DNA of 64,000 nt, taken from contig CAXXVL010000001.1 in the NCBI GenBank assembly GCA_963667845.2, forward strand, positions 404,148 through 468,147. The letters are read 5' to 3'. The notes below the pieces were generated by a model. The model was given only the letters and a program-made list of their open reading frames with translations. It searched no databases and had not been told where the DNA came from. The DNA is from Smithellaceae bacterium. GTDB lineage: Bacteria > Desulfobacterota > Syntrophia > Syntrophales > Smithellaceae. A program made the position numbers and the translations under genes. Below, one piece after another: positions 4,900-46,959 of the stretch (position 1 is the first letter of the stretch; each line of letters begins with the position of its first letter).

Positions 4900-5463
4900 A
4901 TGAAACCGACAGAAATTCTCAAAGACGAACATAAACTGGTTCTCCTGATGCTTAAAATCATGGAAGCGGTGGCCGTCAGGCTTGATCAGGACAAACCTGT
5001 AAACACGGATGATCTTGAAGCCATCATCGATTTCATCCGCACCTTCACGGACAAATGCCATCATGCCAAAGAAGAAAAGCACCTGTTCCCCGCGCTGGAA
5101 AAAGCCGGGATGCCGCAAAATGACGGACCTATTGCCGTGATGCTCCGCGAACACGAGCTCGGCCGCAGCTATACCAGGGAAATGGACGGAGCGCTCGGCC
5201 TGATGAAGAGCGGCGATGCGTCTCGCGCGAAGACTTTCGTGGAGAACGCCCGCGGCTATATCCAGCTGCTGATCAACCATATCGACAAGGAAGAGCGCGT
5301 ACTGTTCGTCATGGCCGATCAGCTGCTGAGCCCTGCGGCGCAGGCGGATCTTGCGGAAGGCTTTGAACGCGTCGAACGCGAGGAAACGGGCGCCGGCGTT
5401 CACGAAAAGTATCACGCCCTTCTCCACAGGCTGCGTGATGCCTATCTCCAGGCGTCGGGATGA
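4900..5463 (+). CDS. Hemerythrin-like (HHE cation-binding) domain protein
   Basis: AGGAGGG RBS then ATG at 4900. Starts MKPTEILKDEHK; has CHHAKEEKHLFP, MLREHE and INHIDKEE, i.e. spaced His/Glu ligand motifs of hemerythrin-like domains. Confidence 0.8.
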   Translation: MKPTEILKDEHKLVLLMLKIMEAVAVRLDQDKPVNTDDLEAIIDFIRTFTDKCHHAKEEKHLFPALEKAGMPQNDGPIAVMLREHELGRSYTREMDGALGLMKSGDASRAKTFVENARGYIQLLINHIDKEERVLFVMADQLLSPAAQADLAEGFERVEREETGAGVHEKYHALLHRLRDAYLQASG

Positions 5464-5536
5464 GTGGACTTTCGGAGGCGTTGATTGGGAACTCTCTTTG
5501 TAGAGCCAGGAAAAGCTTTAGTTGAAAGGAGGATTT

Positions 5537-5944
5537 ATGATGATGAGCCGGCTGAAGACAATTGTTGTATTGATGGTTTTGCATATTCTCCTGTCGAGCA
5601 GTCTGATCGTTGCTGACGCAGACGCCGATAACGTCGTTTATATCAACAACGCAACTGCTTTCACCCTTACTGTCAGCGCGAAATGCATTGAATGCGGAAT
5701 TTTCGGATGGGGGAACGAGAATGACTGCTGGGACGCAAACCCTGTAAGCAAAACCCTGGATTCCCTTAAAGCAGGGTCTGTAAACTGTTTGCCGGTCACC
5801 GGACACAAATTCTTCGTCAAAGAAGTGACCATCACGAGCACGGTAAACAAGAGTTGTACTTTCCAACCACCCGCGAATTCAGACAGTACGTGGTATGTAA
5901 CATTATCGCTCGACAAATCTTATTTCAGTTGTACGAGGCAGTAA
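5537..5944 (+). CDS. Hypothetical exported protein
   Basis: AAGGAGG RBS, ATG at 5537, signal peptide (MMMSRLKTIVVLMVLHILLSSSLIVADA), several Cys. No recognisable family. Confidence 0.6.
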   Translation: MMMSRLKTIVVLMVLHILLSSSLIVADADADNVVYINNATAFTLTVSAKCIECGIFGWGNENDCWDANPVSKTLDSLKAGSVNCLPVTGHKFFVKEVTITSTVNKSCTFQPPANSDSTWYVTLSLDKSYFSCTRQ

Positions 5945-6048: not shown

Positions 6049-7569
6049 ATGGCTTCCGAAAACATTCCCGTGATTATCGGTGCAGGCCAGGTGACAAAGA
6101 AGGAGGCGTCACGTGTGATCGACGGCTCGCCTGTGGATCTGATGGCCGAGGCCGTCGTGGTTGCGGCACAGGACGGCGGTTTGACAAGGCAGTGCCTTCA
6201 AAAAGCCGACCTGCTTATCACCACTTCGCTTTTTTCGGATGACGGTATTATCAACCCTCCGGGATGCGTGGTCGATAAACTTGATCTCTCCGATGCACAA
6301 TGTATGGTTTCCGGATTTGGCGGCATCATGCCGCACGCCATGCTGCATCATGCCATGAAAGCGGTCGCCGAAAACAAAGCCGGTCTGGTTCTCCTGACCG
6401 GAGCCGAAGCTCAGCACACCATGCAGCAGGCGAAAAATTCCCGGACATTTACCGGCTGGAAGGTAACATCTCAGCGCCCCTGCCTTGCGCCGCTGACTTC
6501 CCGGGGAGCGTTTGACGGAGCCTGCGAAACAGAACACATCCACGGTCTTTCGCTTCCCGCGACTGTCTATCCCATGTTTGAAAACGCGCTGCGCCGGCGG
6601 TATGGACGCACGATTACGGAACATACCCGCAAGCTGGGCGAGCTGATGAGCCGTTTTTCACACGTGGCGGCAAACAACCCGCTAGCCTGGTTTCGCGAAC
6701 CGCTTACGCCCGAGGAAATCATTACCGTTTCCGATGCCAACCGCAACACCGCATTTCCTTATACCAAGCGGATGAATGCCATGCTTGGGGTCGACCAGGC
6801 CGCCGCCCTCATTGTTACATCGGAGGCGCAGGCCCGGAAGATGGGTATTGACCCGGCAAAGTGGGTGTATCTGCATGGCTATGCCGAGGCCAGCGATCAC
6901 TGGTATATCCTGGAAAGAGAGGCCTACGGTTTTTCCCCGGCCATTGATATCGTCGGCCGAACTGCCCTCGCGCAGGCCGGCGTGACCATCGCAGACATCG
7001 ATTTCTTCGATCTGTACAGCTGCTTTCCCGTTGCCGTGCAGGTGACCCGCGACATGCTGGGCATTGCCGAAAACGATAATAGGCCGCTGACTATTACCGG
7101 AGGACTTCCCTATTTCGGCGGACCGGGAAATGACTACGTCATGCACTCCATGGCGCAAATGGTTGAGCTTCTGCGTCAACATCCCGGGAAGACCGGCCTT
7201 GTCACCGGTAATTCTTTTTACATGACCAAGCACTCGGCGGCCGTGTGCTCTACCACGCCCCCAAAAGACAATGCGGCGGCTACAGCCGATGTAAGCGTTT
7301 GCCAGAAAGCCGTTGACCTGCGGCCCAAACATCAGATTGATCCCAGGCCCGATGGGCGGGGTACAGTGGAGACCTATACCGTGATTTACGACCGGAACAA
7401 TTTGCCGGGTAAAGGCGTTGTCATCGGAAAAGAAGAAAATGGAAAACGTTTCGCGGCATTCACGCCGCCCGACCCATCTCTGTTTTCAGCAATGGTTACA
7501 GAAGACTTTTGCGGCACGACAGGGACGGTCGTATCCAAAGACAACGTCAACACCTTCACCCCCGATTGA
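6049..7569 (+). CDS. Thiolase-superfamily protein (acetyl-CoA acetyltransferase-like) with extra C-terminal beta-rich domain
   Basis: 506 aa. N-terminus IPVIIGAGQV, candidate nucleophile Cys in AQCMVSGFGG, C-terminal thiolase-like LTITGGLPYFGGPGNDY, then a tail of about 100 aa (GRGTVETYTVIYD...). Confidence 0.7.
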   Translation: MASENIPVIIGAGQVTKKEASRVIDGSPVDLMAEAVVVAAQDGGLTRQCLQKADLLITTSLFSDDGIINPPGCVVDKLDLSDAQCMVSGFGGIMPHAMLHHAMKAVAENKAGLVLLTGAEAQHTMQQAKNSRTFTGWKVTSQRPCLAPLTSRGAFDGACETEHIHGLSLPATVYPMFENALRRRYGRTITEHTRKLGELMSRFSHVAANNPLAWFREPLTPEEIITVSDANRNTAFPYTKRMNAMLGVDQAAALIVTSEAQARKMGIDPAKWVYLHGYAEASDHWYILEREAYGFSPAIDIVGRTALAQAGVTIADIDFFDLYSCFPVAVQVTRDMLGIAENDNRPLTITGGLPYFGGPGNDYVMHSMAQMVELLRQHPGKTGLVTGNSFYMTKHSAAVCSTTPPKDNAAATADVSVCQKAVDLRPKHQIDPRPDGRGTVETYTVIYDRNNLPGKGVVIGKEENGKRFAAFTPPDPSLFSAMVTEDFCGTTGTVVSKDNVNTFTPD

Positions 7570-41081: not shown

Positions 41082-41447
41082 ATGAAGACGATAGCGATAA
41101 TCGCGCATGACGGGAAAAAGGCGGAGATGGTTGCCTTCATCAAGGACCATCTGGAAACCCTCAAAAGATATAAAATAGTCGCCACCGGTTCCACCGGCGG
41201 TTATATAGAAAAAGCGGGTCTGGAAGTTGAAAAGAAACTCTCCGGGCCTCTGGGCGGCGATGCCCAGATCGCTTCCGATGTTGTTGAAGGGAAAATTCAC
41301 GCGGTAATTTTCCTTCGCGACCCTTTGGGAACGCACCCGCATGATCCCGACATTTTTATGCTGCTGCGGATATGCGATGTTCATAATATTCCGTTGGCAA
41401 CCAATACCGCCTCCGCGTATTTGATCATCAAGTCTTTAGAAGAGTGA
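41082..41447 (+). CDS. mgsA: Methylglyoxal synthase
   Basis: MKTIAIIAHDGKK...ATGSTGG...GPLGGDAQI...VIFLRDPLGTHPHDPDI...CDVHNIPLATN, the full set of MgsA motifs. Confidence 0.93.
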   Translation: MKTIAIIAHDGKKAEMVAFIKDHLETLKRYKIVATGSTGGYIEKAGLEVEKKLSGPLGGDAQIASDVVEGKIHAVIFLRDPLGTHPHDPDIFMLLRICDVHNIPLATNTASAYLIIKSLEE

Positions 41448-41583: not shown

Positions 41584-42297
41584 GTGAAGACATTGCATTT
41601 TACATCGATCTGTTTATCTTTGGTCCTTTTCCTTCTGTTGCCGAACCCGGGCCATGCCGCCGGGATTTCTCCGGAAGAATCCGACCGGATCATCAAAGGA
41701 ATGTACAGCAGGTATATTCCGATCTACTTGAAATACCGCGGCGTGGAATCGACCAGCAAAAACATCAGCCGCGAATATGATGCCAGGACCAATGCCCTGA
41801 AAAGCACCACGGAAGTCACGCTGCACAGAAAAGACTATTTCTATGAGGATCCGGAAGTTAAGGCATTGTCCTTCCGAAAAGACGGCAGAGACAGAGACCC
41901 GTCCGATTACCGTTCGCGGGATTCAAAACCGGGTTATCTTGTCTTTGACCGAAAAGGCGCCGAGCATTACACGTTAAAAATTGTCGACAGGAAAGTGATC
42001 GGCAAAAGGGAATGCTACCGGATCGTCGTTACACCGAAAAAGGCAACGGCGAGGCATTTCAAGGGAGAGATCTACTGTGCGGTCGATACGCTGGATGTTG
42101 TGCATACGGCCGGTGGGGCGGGGGATCTGGAATTTCCGATCAAGCATTTCTGGGCGGCATTCGACTTTACGCAGGTCAACAAAGTCCCCGTGGTGCAATC
42201 CGGTACGATAAAAATTCAGGTGGATGTTCCGGTTGTCTACCCCGATACTTTGATCGTAACCGATATCGACATTGTTGAATCCCGACTTATCGAGTAG
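41584..42297 (+). CDS. Hypothetical exported protein (possibly LolA-like beta-barrel fold)
   Basis: GTG start, signal peptide SICLSLVLFLLLPNPGHA. No known motif. Confidence 0.55.
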   Translation: MKTLHFTSICLSLVLFLLLPNPGHAAGISPEESDRIIKGMYSRYIPIYLKYRGVESTSKNISREYDARTNALKSTTEVTLHRKDYFYEDPEVKALSFRKDGRDRDPSDYRSRDSKPGYLVFDRKGAEHYTLKIVDRKVIGKRECYRIVVTPKKATARHFKGEIYCAVDTLDVVHTAGGAGDLEFPIKHFWAAFDFTQVNKVPVVQSGTIKIQVDVPVVYPDTLIVTDIDIVESRLIE

Positions 42298-42428
42298 TCG
42301 ATACGATGCGGTGCTCAAATCCCCGGGGCACCGCTTGAGAAAGGGCTTTCGTCTCGGAAGAGAAAGAGCGTGCATTTGAAGATCGAACCCATGACGATAT
42401 CATTATACAAAAAGGAAGGATCACAACG

Positions 42429-42830
42429 ATGAAAAAGACATTGAAAGAAAAAGCATTCCCGGTGTTTTTCGCAATAACGATCAGTATTCTCGGCTCGGGA
42501 TTTTTCGATGCTGATGCTTTTGACAGAACGATTTGCAACAGCAATCACTCCGCACTGATGATTGCCTGCCATAATCAAGCAGGCAATTATGGATGGGGCA
42601 GCGGAAGTGCAAAGCAATCATTCGATGGTGGCTGCGATCAGGCGGCAGTGACTATTGTGAATCGGTGTTATAGTGAAACAGTTTGCGGCACATTCAGGTC
42701 ATTTCTGAGTGATCTGGGAAGTTCGTGCAATTCCCTGGCGCATGCGGCAAAGAAAGACGGGTGTTATGAAATGCGCACCCAGTGGATCAATTTGTATGAC
42801 GGGAAAAATTTCTCCCCTTGCGTGCAATAG
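42429..42830 (+). CDS. Hypothetical exported Cys-rich protein
   Basis: AAGGAAGGA RBS, N-terminal hydrophobic segment, about 9 Cys. Confidence 0.55.
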   Translation: MKKTLKEKAFPVFFAITISILGSGFFDADAFDRTICNSNHSALMIACHNQAGNYGWGSGSAKQSFDGGCDQAAVTIVNRCYSETVCGTFRSFLSDLGSSCNSLAHAAKKDGCYEMRTQWINLYDGKNFSPCVQ

Positions 42831-42990
42831 TAAAGGGTTTGTTTTTGCGCGTCACTTGAAATACAATGCGCCGTGCGGCAGGAAAAGAAGACGGAAACTC
42901 AAAGCCGGAAGTGACTAAAAATCTAAACAGCCATTGACCCGGCAGTTCGCCCGGTCAATCCGTATGAACCATTTTAGAGCAAAGAAATCC

Positions 42991-43500
42991 ATGCTAAATA
43001 AATTCCAGTTCCGAATCGCATTATTGACAATCCTCATCGTCTCATTTCCCTTCATTTGTTTCTCGGAAGAGCCCAATCCGAAAGTCTGGGAGCCGATGGG
43101 CCGTCAATTGTACTACAATAAAAAAATCATCACGGAATCATCGGGTCTGCTGCTGGTCTGGACATACAGGACCGTGACGAATGAAAACAGGGCAAAGAGA
43201 ATCGAAGAAGTAAAGAAATACGATCCGGGAAAATCCATCGCCTATCAGAAATATCACCATGAATGTTTCCTGTGGGAGATCGATTGCGGCAATAGAAGGA
43301 TCAAAACGAAAGAGTACATCGATTTCGACACAGACGGAAAGGCGATTGACCGCTACCGGTACGATAACGGTGAATGGGAAAGCGTCATCGCCGGAAGCGG
43401 CGCGGAGCGGTTATATCAAAATGCCTGCAGTCCCCCCAAGCCCCAGAAGCCCCAGAAACAGAAACCGAAACCGAAGAAACCATCCGGAAAGAGGAAGTGA
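42991..43500 (+). CDS. Hypothetical exported protein with Lys/Pro-rich C-terminal tail
   Basis: Signal-like IALLTILIVSFPFICFS, motif WEIDCGNRRIK, tail PPKPQKPQKQKPKPKKPSGKRK. Paralogous to the next gene. The ORF is open from 42934. Confidence 0.55.
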   Translation: MLNKFQFRIALLTILIVSFPFICFSEEPNPKVWEPMGRQLYYNKKIITESSGLLLVWTYRTVTNENRAKRIEEVKKYDPGKSIAYQKYHHECFLWEIDCGNRRIKTKEYIDFDTDGKAIDRYRYDNGEWESVIAGSGAERLYQNACSPPKPQKPQKQKPKPKKPSGKRK

Positions 43501-43553
43501 TTCCGGATTTCATTTGCCGGTATGACGAACTATTTGTTAAAACAGGAACAGGT

Positions 43554-43985
43554 ATGAAGAAGATCAGGTCAATTGTTTTGTCGTTTCTCATTTCCTTTTT
43601 ATTTGCCGGCCCGGTGATGGCTTCGGATGATTGGGAGAAGAACTACACGGACGCAAACGGGGATGTTGTTTTATACAAGATAGAACGCAGAGACACGGAT
43701 TCGGTCCAGGTTTGGGGGAAACGGATTTTTTCCGCTATCGGCAGGCAGGAGTTTCTCCGGGACAGGCAAGAGAATGGATTCTCAACAAAAGGATGGGAGA
43801 CGCTCGGACATTTTACGTCTCTCTATGAGATCAATTGCCCGAAAAGATTGGGCCGGCTGTTATCCGTCGTCATTTACGATGCGGACGGCAAAATCGTCTA
43901 TGCCGACTCTTTTGGCGAACCCGATTGGGATGAGATTCTTCCCAATACGGTTGGCGATACTCTGCAAAAGAAAGTCTGTAAATAA
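43554..43985 (+). CDS. Hypothetical exported protein, paralog of 42991-43500
   Basis: Signal MKKIRSIVLSFLISFLFAGPVMA. Shares with the preceding gene the pattern W...Y....V.VW......YEINC..R and a D.DGK..Y region. Confidence 0.55.
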   Translation: MKKIRSIVLSFLISFLFAGPVMASDDWEKNYTDANGDVVLYKIERRDTDSVQVWGKRIFSAIGRQEFLRDRQENGFSTKGWETLGHFTSLYEINCPKRLGRLLSVVIYDADGKIVYADSFGEPDWDEILPNTVGDTLQKKVCK

Positions 43986-44058
43986 ATCAAAGATACAAAT
44001 TGTTGTTTGTTTTTAGCGCTCATTTGAAATACAATACGTTTATATGAGGAGGAATCTT

Positions 44059-44931
44059 ATGGATCAGCTAAGATCGTATCGTTCTTTCGTGAGTTACATC
44101 GACCGCAGCCGGGAGTATTATGCTGCGCAGGGCTATGAAAAACCCTATGCCTGGCCGCACTATGACCATGTTCCCTTTACACCCCTCCCCAAACAGCTTG
44201 ACCAATGCCGTATCGGACTGGTCACGACCGCCGGCAAACCCAAGCCCGCAGGACCGATGGCGGCCATATTGTATCGCCGGGAGATGTACGCCGAACCGGC
44301 CGTCCCGCCGCCTGCCGCGCTTTATACCGACGATCTGTTCTGGGATAAGCAGGCGACGCATACGAGGGATGTGGATAGCTTTCTTCCGTTGAACCGGTTA
44401 GCGGAGTATGCCCAAAGCGGCCGGATCGGATCGGCGTCGCCCCGGTTTTACGGCGTGCCCACCGATTACAGTCAGCCCAGGACTATTGATCTCTATGGCC
44501 CCCAGATCCTCAAATGGTGCCGCGAAGACGGAGTTGATGCGGTCGTCCTTTTTGCGCTTTGACCGGTTTGCCACCAGACCGTGAGTCTGGTCGCCCGTCA
44601 CCTGGAAGCGGGAGGAATTGCGACCGTCGTGGTGGGCTCAGCGCGGGACATCGTCGAAGAGTGCGGGGTTGCAAGGTTTGTGTTTACCGATTTTCCGCTG
44701 GGGAATCCCTGCGGGAAACCGGGGGATGCCGGAATGCAGCGGTCGATCCTGGGAACCGCGCTTGATCTCCTTGCCGGGGCCTGGATGACGCGCACCACAA
44801 TTCAGACGCCTTATCAGTGGCCAAGCGATGAATGGCGCGACGGCTTCATGAGAGTTGACGATTCCAATCGCGAGGCCCTGGCCCGTGCCGGACGGGAACG
44901 CCGCGAGTTGCAGGCCAAAATGAAGAAATAG
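44059..44931 (+). CDS. GrdB/PrdB-family reductase-like selenoprotein (in-frame UGA at 44560-44562), orphan
   Basis: ORFs 44044-44562 and 44581-44931 share one frame and are separated only by TGA. The recoded site reads VVLFAL-U-PVCHQTVSLVARHLEAGGIATVVVGS, i.e. a U-x-x-C redox motif followed by a GrdB/PrdB-like segment. GAGGAGG RBS before ATG 44059. Confidence 0.7.
44573..44591 (+). promoter_or_regulatory. Candidate SECIS hairpin for the GrdB-like gene
   Basis: A-CCAGAC-CGTGA-GTCTGG-T: 7-bp stem, 5-nt loop containing GU, starting 13 nt after the U of UGA. Confidence 0.5.
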
Positions 44932-45225
44932 CTTTTCAGCGGTTTCCGATCCGGGCGATTCCGCCGGAATCGAATTTCGTCACCCCGGGCGGGCGAAGCG
45001 CGACCGGTATCCGGTATATTCATGACCACCGGATGCAAGCCGCGCCGACATGACGGCCCCGATGAAGATTTGATTATCACACCAAGACGCCAGGTTCGGC
45101 CTGACGTTCGGGCAAGCTTCAAAGCAGCAACGGCTAAACGGCCGGGAATGTCACGATCAGGATTCGTCAATACGTTACAAAGCCACTCGTCAGGAAAATG
45201 ATTAAGCGACAGGAGGGATACAACG

Positions 45226-45720
45226 ATGAAGCGGTATCACGATACGGCACGGAAGGTTCTGTTATTTGTTCTGATCGGCCTAACCATTCTATTGATCAAC
45301 ACGGAGGTATGTATGGCAAAAGAATTTGATGCGTCTCTCAATGTCATGGGCTACGACCGGAATGTCACCGTAAAAATCAACGGGGTTCAATTGAGCCGGA
45401 TTACCGGCGGGCAGTCGCAATCCGCCAGACTTTTTCTCGCCGATGACCCCCTGCTGAAAACGCTGCCGCAGGAGAGGCAGGAAAAAATGAAAGAGCTTTT
45501 TTGTCTGAAGAAAGGCGAGAACATCATCGAGATCAGTTTCAGTGAAAAGGGCCAGCCCAAGTCGCCGTCGCAGTTTACCGTCAGCATCGATTCCAGCAAC
45601 TACAAAGTGCCCGTGCTGAAATACGAGAAGGGACCCAATGTCAAGGAAGGAAAGACCAAAGGCATATTTACGATACTCATTGATCAGCCGGCGGGATTTA
45701 AAACGGTCATTCTGCAATAG
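45226..45720 (+). CDS. Hypothetical exported protein
   Basis: AGGAGGG RBS, N-terminal hydrophobic segment VLLFVLIGLTILLINTEVCMA. No family recognised. Confidence 0.55.
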   Translation: MKRYHDTARKVLLFVLIGLTILLINTEVCMAKEFDASLNVMGYDRNVTVKINGVQLSRITGGQSQSARLFLADDPLLKTLPQERQEKMKELFCLKKGENIIEISFSEKGQPKSPSQFTVSIDSSNYKVPVLKYEKGPNVKEGKTKGIFTILIDQPAGFKTVILQ

Positions 45721-45864
45721 GAGTTCGTAAGCCCGCGCGTCCGCGGGAATCACGGATACAGAGGGGCAGCGGCCCCTCTTTCCGATCGAGAATGAGCCGC
45801 TTGGCGCTCTCCTGATGTTTAACGGATCCAACTTACTCGTCGCGTTGATTCGGGGTGCAGGCAA

Positions 45865-46959
45865 ATGTTTGGAAAACTTCTGGCTTTCTTCTTTTCTTTT
45901 TTCGGGGTGATTCTGGCCATTCCGCTCATCGTGGCAATCGCCGTGCTCGCCTTTAAATTCGATCTGCGCTCCTTTATGACCCTGCATCCCCTCGGCTCCG
46001 CGATCATTGCCGCCGGGTATGCCTTCATCTGGGTCGTCGCGTTCTTCGCCCTGCAGGATTTTTTTATTGTCTGGAAGCCGGATGCGCGCACCGCTCCCGT
46101 CGGCAAAAAAGAATTGATCGATAAACTGGAGCGCTCTTTTAAGCGAGATTTTGAGGGGAAACCCCTTTTCGATGTTTTTCGTTCCGACGACGACCGGCTG
46201 GCCATCACGTGGTCGCAATCGATCAGCTATTTTCAGGTTACGGCGGGCGGCCGGATAGGAAAGAAGCGCGTTATCGTGCTCAGCTTCGACGAGCCCGGGC
46301 ATGAGGCTTCTTTCATCATGAAAGAAAAGGACTGGCGATGGTCGCTCTCGGCGAAGCGCTTCGATTTTTCCATGAGCTATTCGGCGGGCATCTTTGCCGA
46401 AATTTCTACGGACGTCGCGCCCTCGGTGACCTTTGACAAAGACGGCGGCTTTTCCATCGATTTGAAAAAGCTGTCCTATGATTACCGGGATCTTTGGGTA
46501 CCCATCGAGAAGACGCTGCTTGCAGCGGGCTGGACCATCCGGGGCGGCATGCTTCCCGGCTGGGGGTACCGGCTGGCGATCGCCGCACCGTTTGCTGTTT
46601 TAATGTTTGCGCTTTTTTTTCTTGTCCTGAGGAGCGCTCCCGCTCTGCCTGCTGCAGCGCCGGCAAACGCTCCCGCGAAAGAGACGGCAGCGGCCGATCG
46701 GGACTCCTATAAACGAAGTGAAGCCGAGCAGATTATTGCGTCGGGCAAACTGAAGTCGGCCTACCAGATTGAAATTGCGCTTGCCGGTTTGATGAAAGTG
46801 CCCAAAGATTATTTCGGCGACTATGAACACGCCTTTATCGCGTACGCCAGGGTTTATCAGGAAAAAGCGGACAAGAAGCCTGAATTCGTTGCCCGATTGG
46901 ATGCATTTGCGAAGGATTACGGAGTCGACCCGAAGACTTACGAATCGCCGGGGAAATAG
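45865..46959 (+). CDS. Hypothetical membrane protein
   Basis: Two N-terminal and one central hydrophobic helices and an Ala/Pro-rich linker. No family recognised. Confidence 0.55.
   Translation: MFGKLLAFFFSFFGVILAIPLIVAIAVLAFKFDLRSFMTLHPLGSAIIAAGYAFIWVVAFFALQDFFIVWKPDARTAPVGKKELIDKLERSFKRDFEGKPLFDVFRSDDDRLAITWSQSISYFQVTAGGRIGKKRVIVLSFDEPGHEASFIMKEKDWRWSLSAKRFDFSMSYSAGIFAEISTDVAPSVTFDKDGGFSIDLKKLSYDYRDLWVPIEKTLLAAGWTIRGGMLPGWGYRLAIAAPFAVLMFALFFLVLRSAPALPAAAPANAPAKETAAADRDSYKRSEAEQIIASGKLKSAYQIEIALAGLMKVPKDYFGDYEHAFIAYARVYQEKADKKPEFVARLDAFAKDYGVDPKTYESPGK

Follow-up and report, generated by a model that had tools for sequence, protein, structure and literature searches.

Within the GrdB/PrdB superfamily (PF07355), whose chemistry is reviewed in PMC13188914, the closest described systems are PrdB of D-proline reductase (TIGR04483; Clostridium sticklandii and C. 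difficile) and the GrdB, GrdF and GrdH proteins (TIGR01917/TIGR01918). A third system, FarB/FarE, has been put forward as a fluoroacetate reductase in Synergistota, with FarB as a GrdB-like selenoprotein that would cleave a C-F bond (PMC10838667). The present analysis concerns a 64,000-nt stretch of DNA from a Smithellaceae bacterium (GenBank assembly GCA_963667845.2, contig CAXXVL010000001.1, positions 404,148 to 468,147 of the forward strand; hereafter the window), in which positions 44059-44931 are split by an in-frame TGA. We consider it highly probable that these positions hold a single gene for a cytoplasmic selenocysteine (Sec)-containing protein of ~32 kDa, from a stand-alone clade of the same superfamily. 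That judgement covers the best explanation as a whole: one Sec gene, recoding of the UGA, a U-x-x-C redox pair, independence from partner subunits, and a guess at a coenzyme A (CoA)-linked substrate.

The family is not new, having appeared in selenoprotein surveys since 2005. The UxxC selenoprotein named there 'proline reductase PrdB' ranked third in abundance among the families of the Sargasso Sea data of 2005, with 42 Sec forms against one Cys form (PMC1088965). In the Global Ocean Sampling data of 2008 it was represented by 235 Sec and 110 Cys forms (PMC2398784), and a 2006 survey of bacterial genomes listed Anaeromyxobacter and Geobacter uraniireducens as carriers (PMC1794560). These surveys do not set a clade apart from true PrdB and are silent on the lack of PrdA, and later reviews cite the clostridial enzyme only (PMC9312934, PMC13188914). 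A full-text literature search returned no paper that separates a PrdA-less clade, and the searchable papers do not discuss its function or its independence from PrdA. A very widespread selenoprotein family still bears the name of an enzyme that it almost certainly does not represent.

One gene across an in-frame UGA

Nothing but the TGA at 44560-44562 interrupts the frame shared by open reading frames (ORFs) 44044-44562 and 44581-44931. The preliminary description of this DNA had joined them into one product of 290 aa with Sec at residue 168, and translation bears this out. With TGA read as U, a complete coding sequence for a PrdB-like selenoprotein runs on the forward strand from 44059 to the TAG stop at 44929-44931; the product reads ...DGVDAVVLFAL-U-PVCHQTVSLVARHLEAGGIATVVVGSARD..., and the residues after U168 in the context DAVVLFAL-U are PVCHQTVSLVARHLEAGGIATV. 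A Shine-Dalgarno motif read from the sequence, GAGGAGG at 44046-44052 (+), stands 6 nt 5' of ATG 44059. As this motif falls inside the ORF that would start at 44044, ATG 44059 is favoured as the true start, in agreement with the homologs, which begin at the residue equivalent to MDQL. A promoter and terminator scan gave nothing exceeding shuffle expectation. For the annotation of the Smithellaceae genome, two 'hypothetical' ORFs become one selenoprotein gene.

Across a search space of 5.8 billion proteins, more than 4,500 database clusters matched the product, and they fall into two classes. The first consists of 40 clusters of 167-aa orthologs (73-100% identity), all of which end in ...AL exactly at the TGA site. 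The second consists of full-length homologs of 290-300 aa and 48-63% identity, and 78 of the 79 full-length database homologs carry Cys at the residue aligned to U168. The remaining one, P0077, has Trp at the site (LVPL-W-PVCHQ), most likely a TGA that the source gene caller translated under genetic code 4 or 25. With this Trp set aside, the homologs carry nothing except Cys or TGA there.

A scan of species-representative genomes revealed at least 600 matching stretches, of which at least 577 encode a relative, and codons were counted in the best 80 loci. The motif is present in 77 of these, with TGA at the Sec site in 68 and TGC or TGT in nine. The loci span about ten phyla, mostly in the Sec form; the hosts include Syntrophia, other Thermodesulfobacteriota, Myxococcota, Dehalococcoidia, Spirochaetales, Binatia, Acidimicrobiia, Acidobacteriota, Rokubacteria, and Alpha-, Beta- and Gammaproteobacteria. 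Loci of marine Gammaproteobacteria and Acidimicrobiia retain the same motif at ~50% identity, and among 41 relatives of the source genome 13 carry a match, each with exactly one TGA. In the motif [U/C]-P-V-C-H-Q-[T/S], residues P169, V170, C171, H172 and Q173 do not vary across the 85 aligned sequences, among which are the fusion proteins. The halves 5' and 3' of the TGA are never separate genes and always lie contiguously in one frame; in 68 loci of about ten phyla, the 122 codons beyond the TGA keep the frame and encode conserved protein sequence.

Judged from this comparison of loci, whose agreement far exceeds chance, UGA-168 (44560-44562, +) is a Sec codon, and the predicted Sec168 is the first residue of a U-P-V-C redox motif. 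The codons at 44569-44580 (+) encode C171-H172-Q173-T174, that is, the putative resolving Cys, the invariant His-Gln pair and the residue after it. Cultured carriers, known from the literature or from our matches, include Anaeromyxobacter and Geobacter uraniireducens, and Bradyrhizobium, which carries a Cys form.

The host genome encodes the machinery for Sec insertion. The assembly comprises 4.5 Mb in two contigs and is 99% complete; the closest relatives of the protein come from metagenome-assembled genomes of Smithella and Syntrophaceae. A tRNA-Sec gene is present, and SelB (360 bits), SelD (375 bits) and SelA (599 bits) all score over the curated cut-offs. The selD gene (C2:297530-298453, outside the window) itself contains one in-frame TGA, and the selenophosphate synthetase of this genome is probably a selenoprotein as well; SelD is a common bacterial selenoprotein in surveys.

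A conserved SECIS-like hairpin follows the codon

A 7-bp hairpin at 44573-44591, with the loop CGUGA and 13 nt after the UGA, had been pointed out in the preliminary description and is found exactly as drawn. The whole element, which resembles a Sec insertion sequence (SECIS), occupies 44570-44594 on the forward strand. Its upper stem of 7 bp pairs 44573-44579 with 44585-44591 around the loop at 44580-44584 (letters ACCAGAC/CGUGA/GUCUGGU), and two lower pairs (44570-44571 with 44593-44594) follow across a C-C mismatch. The first stem base lies 13 nt from the U of the UGA, with 10 nt between the A of the codon and that base, so that the stem starts 11 nt after the codon. The minimal upper stem-loop of E. 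coli fdhF begins 11 nt after the UGA. We take the spacing and the G-containing apical loop to agree with the bacterial SECIS model.

Pairing was tested for this hairpin together with the two lower pairs on 64 distinct Sec sequences, using 500 shuffles and slid controls. Standard pairs fill 96.7% of the cells, and three pairs are changed on both sides (C-G to U-A, G-C to A-U, and A-U to U-A). The real sequences exceed all 500 shuffles in both pairing and covariation score; when the partner is shifted by 1-3 columns, only 23-33% of the cells pair. In one compensatory change, a synonymous His substitution (CAC to CAU) goes together with a Val to Thr replacement, so that the RNA structure constrains the protein sequence. 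The 20 nt CACCAGACCGUGAGUCUGGU are near-invariant in the Sec forms, synonymous positions included, whereas the Cys forms vary in the same region, where they read QTTSLA, QSLALV or QTISLV.

No Rfam family matched positions 44300-44800 at E values up to 10, and the single-sequence minimum-free-energy (MFE) fold of the 69-nt segment (z-score -1.95) does not choose the conserved hairpin. An overlapping alternative hairpin (columns 20-25 with 29-34) was rejected, as it pairs fully in a minority of loci and overall no better than shuffles. A minority of the Sec forms (loci L021, L023, L027, L042, L046, L048 and L049) carry TVSLTA instead of TVSLVA, and a shifted hairpin, CCGUSA-GUC-USACGG, is possible there. 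In these lineages the SECIS appears to have been remodelled, with the amino-acid change coupled to it.

Placement in the GrdB/PrdB superfamily

A match to the GrdB/PrdB family had been suggested from the motif context, and profile searches agree with it. Pfam GRDB (PF07355) scores 25.4 bits against a gathering threshold of 22, with coverage confined to model positions 200-345 of 347. Among the NCBIfam models, PrdB (TIGR04483; E 9.3e-27) matches best, over positions 20-234 of 238 and at 94 bits against an equivalog cut-off of 300 bits. The GrdB models TIGR01917 and TIGR01918 are missed (32.9 bits against 65.45, and 27 bits against 602), all GrdB-type models staying under their cut-offs, and more distant relatives from the representative library show the same profile behaviour. 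At one locus of another carrier genome (L092), a 435-aa GrdB-type gene that adjoins a GrdE/PrdA-type gene has its own in-frame TGA, which aligns exactly with U168, so that the two share a homologous catalytic position. The protein belongs to the GrdB/PrdB superfamily but is an ortholog of neither PrdB nor GrdB.

With PrdB the protein shares homology over nearly the whole model, Sec at the homologous site, a nearby resolving Cys and, probably, the chemistry of selenolate attack and then resolution by way of a Se-S bond. Unlike PrdB, it has ~45 extra N-terminal and ~35 extra C-terminal residues and its own motif, U-P-V-C-H-Q; it misses the PrdB cut-off by the margin given above, its genome has no PrdA pyruvoyl subunit, and no prd operon surrounds the gene. 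With GrdB, GrdF and GrdH it shares the C-terminal half, over which the GRDB gathering score is passed, and the aligned Sec position. It differs from GrdB (~430 aa) in its length of 290 aa, in lacking a ~200-aa N-terminal half, and in a genome without GrdA and GrdE. FarB offers a proposed precedent for GrdB-family selenolate attack on an alpha-carbon bond other than C-N (PMC10838667); unlike the present protein, it is paired in an operon with FarE, a GrdE homolog.

The gene very likely belongs to the 'proline reductase PrdB' family of the surveys, because motif, Pfam assignment and host range match: both have a UxxC Sec motif, pfam07355, more Sec than Cys forms, and hosts among non-Stickland bacteria. 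There is no detectable difference between the two as compared by motif, Pfam assignment and host taxa.

Members of the clade are ~290 aa long and share the invariant [U/C]-P-V-C-H-Q-[T/S] and an N-terminal YIDxxRxYY...W extension, all of which are found here. The extension is absent from PrdB, and its conserved residues are Y13, R18, Y21, Y30 and W32. Over the 290 aa, 18 positions are invariant and ~50 near-invariant, including R18, W32, S138, T142, R180, E183, D197, E200 and R206. Cys218, in the segment GNPCG, is not among the conserved residues of the wider family, in which GYPTG or GYPFG also occurs. An AlphaFold2 model built from the 85 aligned sequences predicts one compact alpha/beta domain (predicted local distance difference test 91.2, predicted template modelling score 0.91). 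A phmmer search against PDB sequences found nothing at E values up to 1, and a Foldseek search against PDB found nothing up to 1e-3, with a top template modelling score of ~0.3 to generic alpha/beta proteins.

In a tree of 77 proteins, the protein is nested in a Syntrophia clade, and at least three independent origins among Sec forms are needed to explain the Cys forms. The G+C content of the gene is 59%, against 51% in the genome and 46-50% in the immediate neighbours. Only ~10 of 25 genomes from the genus have it, and its behaviour is that of an accessory, mobile gene. Four Syntrophia relatives (G005, G032, G036 and G038) encode more distant PrdB-like paralogs of 26-33% identity, each with one in-frame TGA and without PF09338. 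There seem to be several distinct partner-less Sec-containing subfamilies in the superfamily.

No partner subunits

The lack of reductase partners, first noticed within the window, extends to the whole genome and to most other carriers. The genome has a single PF07355 locus. Profile searches of the 99%-complete assembly found no locus for PF09338 (GrdE/PrdA) and none for PF04723 (GrdA), the latter by a search without a positive control. PF09338 was not found in any of 12 related genomes, nine of them with an ortholog, nor in 21 of 22 carrier genomes of other phyla. In the exception (G041), two PF09338 matches scored 268-329 bits, which makes it the positive control for that search. By the absence of these genes, the protein is shown to work without a pyruvoyl subunit (PrdA/GrdE) and without GrdA.

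No other partner emerges from the neighbourhoods of the orthologs, which had been proposed as a check. When the ORFs around 81 loci were clustered, no cluster besides the gene itself and its overlapping ORFs occurred in more than nine loci, and a Pfam tally counted 132 different families among 108 adjacent genes. The initial proposal of a stand-alone selenoenzyme in an undescribed context survives in its first part, for the gene is an orphan; its context is not undescribed, as the surveys already list the family (PMC1088965, PMC2398784, PMC1794560). Of the outcomes named beforehand as refuting (no profile similarity, another sense codon at the Sec site, independent halves, no Sec machinery), none was observed.

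Possible links to coenzyme A metabolism and a proposed mechanism

A weak lead to the substrate comes from longer proteins with a PrdB-like domain. These are of three fusion types, each confirmed as a single called gene on contigs. In at least 11 diverged clusters, with proteins of ~800 aa, the PrdB-like domain is preceded by an AMP-binding acyl-CoA ligase at the N-terminus; six clusters, one of them with a full-length member of 725 aa, have CoA_transf_3 (family III, CaiB-type CoA-transferase) fused C-terminally; and two clusters combine the PrdB-like domain with an APH-type kinase. All the fusions are Cys forms of a VPN-C-PVCHQ subclade. Among the Sec forms, a tight operon of ACAD, CoA-transferase and PrdB-like(Sec) genes, in that order, is present at one Acidimicrobiales and one Rokubacteria locus. 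The commonest neighbours of the Sec forms, among the 108 adjacent genes, are AMP-binding (4), CoA_transf_3 (3), ACAD (2), NDP-forming CoA ligase (2), thiolase-like (2) and HpcH lyase (2). In total ~15 of these 108 genes encode CoA-linked enzymes, against ~2 of 89 genes more than 4 kb away (only acetyl-CoA hydrolase, 2).

The fusions to acyl-CoA ligase, CaiB-type CoA-transferase and APH-type kinase, together with the ACAD operons of two phyla, hint at a CoA-linked selenoenzyme. The fused or adjacent CoA enzymes match generically, except for one acetoacetate-CoA ligase (locus L087), and with acyl specificities so heterogeneous the common factor may be CoA itself rather than one acyl group. We tentatively propose a CoA-linked substrate, which might be an alpha-substituted acyl-CoA, CoA disulfide or a mixed disulfide. 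A wider claim, on which we would place slightly less weight, is that the 'proline reductase PrdB' of the surveys could be a self-contained selenoenzyme acting on CoA-linked substrates with no pyruvoyl partner, where activation would come from the thioester or from a kinase-installed leaving group. On this view one of the most abundant selenoproteins of the surface ocean, counted for twenty years as 'proline reductase PrdB', may be no proline reductase subunit. The fusions to CoA-activating enzymes are a concrete and testable start for the function of the family.

In the proposed mechanism, SelB and tRNA-Sec would recode UGA-168 as Sec, guided by the hairpin 11 nt after the codon. In the AlphaFold2 model, Sec168 caps the N-terminus of helix 169-184, in the loop that leads there from strand 161-165, and may form with Cys171 the selenol/thiol redox pair of U-x-x-C. 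By analogy with GrdB and PrdB, the selenolate would attack the substrate, Cys171 would resolve the adduct to leave a selenenyl-sulfide, and its Se-S bond would be re-reduced by thioredoxin or another cellular dithiol.

Several points weigh against this picture. The catalytic cycle of selenolate attack, resolution by Cys171 and re-reduction by a dithiol is drawn by analogy only. The link to CoA comes from Cys-type relatives (~40% identity, VPN-C-PVCHQ) and from a minority of the Sec loci, while the PrdB-like gene has unrelated neighbours in most of the 81 loci and also in the window, where Adhesin_E-like exported proteins lie beside it. The host genomes are rich in CoA-linked families, and the test for enrichment is a crude one of little statistical weight. 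The CoA-forming partners are mixed (fatty-acyl ligases, acetoacetate-CoA ligase and CaiB-type transferases), and no single acyl substrate is indicated. Finally, a thiolase-like gene 5' of the closest orthologs (L012 and L013) was considered as a partner and rejected, as it does not co-occur with the PrdB-like gene in 41 relatives.

Two further genes are recorded here as separate observations. The window encodes at 6058-7527 (+) (C1:410205-411674) a thiolase-like type-1 protein, 37 kb from the selenoprotein gene, which shares 37% identity with the thiolase-like neighbour in the closest relatives. At another locus (L094), a glutathione peroxidase (GSHPx) gene at 5289-5834 (-) stands directly 3' of one fusion of AMP-binding and PrdB-like domains, a single case that may reflect chance or a redox link.

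Alternative explanations

The product might instead serve general thiol/selenol redox functions, as an antioxidant or a disulfide reductase comparable to the selenoproteins of thioredoxin, peroxiredoxin or DsbA type, with no specific small-molecule substrate. We regard this as unlikely, although a U-x-x-C at a helix N-terminus after a beta-strand is the usual geometry of a redox dithiol, no operon partner is conserved, and the 2005 survey places the family among the thiol-dependent redox selenoproteins (PMC1088965, Table 3). The modelled fold, however, is not thioredoxin-like and has no detectable PDB relative, and the invariant and near-invariant residues spread over the 290 aa suggest a substrate pocket more than an isolated redox motif. 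The homologous reductases, which cleave C-N and, as proposed, C-F bonds, act on specific substrates (PMC13188914, PMC10838667), and the recurrent fusions to CoA-activating enzymes favour a metabolic role.

Far less probable is a genuine B subunit of D-proline or glycine/betaine/sarcosine reductase, whose partners (PrdA/GrdE with GrdA or PrdC) would be encoded elsewhere. Databases and surveys do label such genes 'D-proline reductase PrdB' or 'glycine reductase' (PMC1088965), PrdB is the top NCBIfam match over a near-full model, and the Sec site is homologous to that of the complex-type B proteins. This reading is largely rejected all the same, on scores below the PrdB and GrdB cut-offs and on the absence of PF09338 and PF04723 from a nearly complete genome. 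The search for PF09338, which works in G041, also came back empty in almost all other carriers and in every related genome. Many carriers, moreover, belong to lineages of aerobic heterotrophs (Reyranella, Pseudohongiella and Acidimicrobiia), and we know of no Stickland fermentation in these lineages.

The reading of the TGA as a true stop, within a pseudogene or between two small genes and beside a coincidental hairpin or attenuator, has virtually no chance of being right and is rejected: gene callers truncate or split the gene everywhere (the 40 clusters of 167-aa products), the hairpin lacks an Rfam match and the MFE fold of its segment prefers other local pairing at a z-score of only -1.95, but the comparative data already refute it through the in-frame conservation beyond the TGA, Cys in place of the stop in nine loci and nearly all full-length database homologs, compensatory changes in the hairpin, synonymous sites frozen in the TGA forms only, and the Sec machinery of the genome.

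Gene neighbourhood in the window

The neighbours of the gene had been described as unknown exported proteins. That they are exported is confirmed, and two of these small proteins are no longer unknown, being Adhesin_E-like paralogs; the rest have no Pfam match. The two Adhesin_E (PF16747) genes stand in tandem just 5' of the selenoprotein gene, at 42991-43500 and 43554-43985 (+), with E values of 1.6e-8 and 2e-7. Both they and the selenoprotein gene are embedded in a low-GC run (46-50%; 41584-46959) of exported or membrane proteins without a Pfam match. Just 5' of this run, positions 41082-41447 (+) encode a 121-aa protein with an MGS-like (methylglyoxal synthase-like) domain (E 9e-17).

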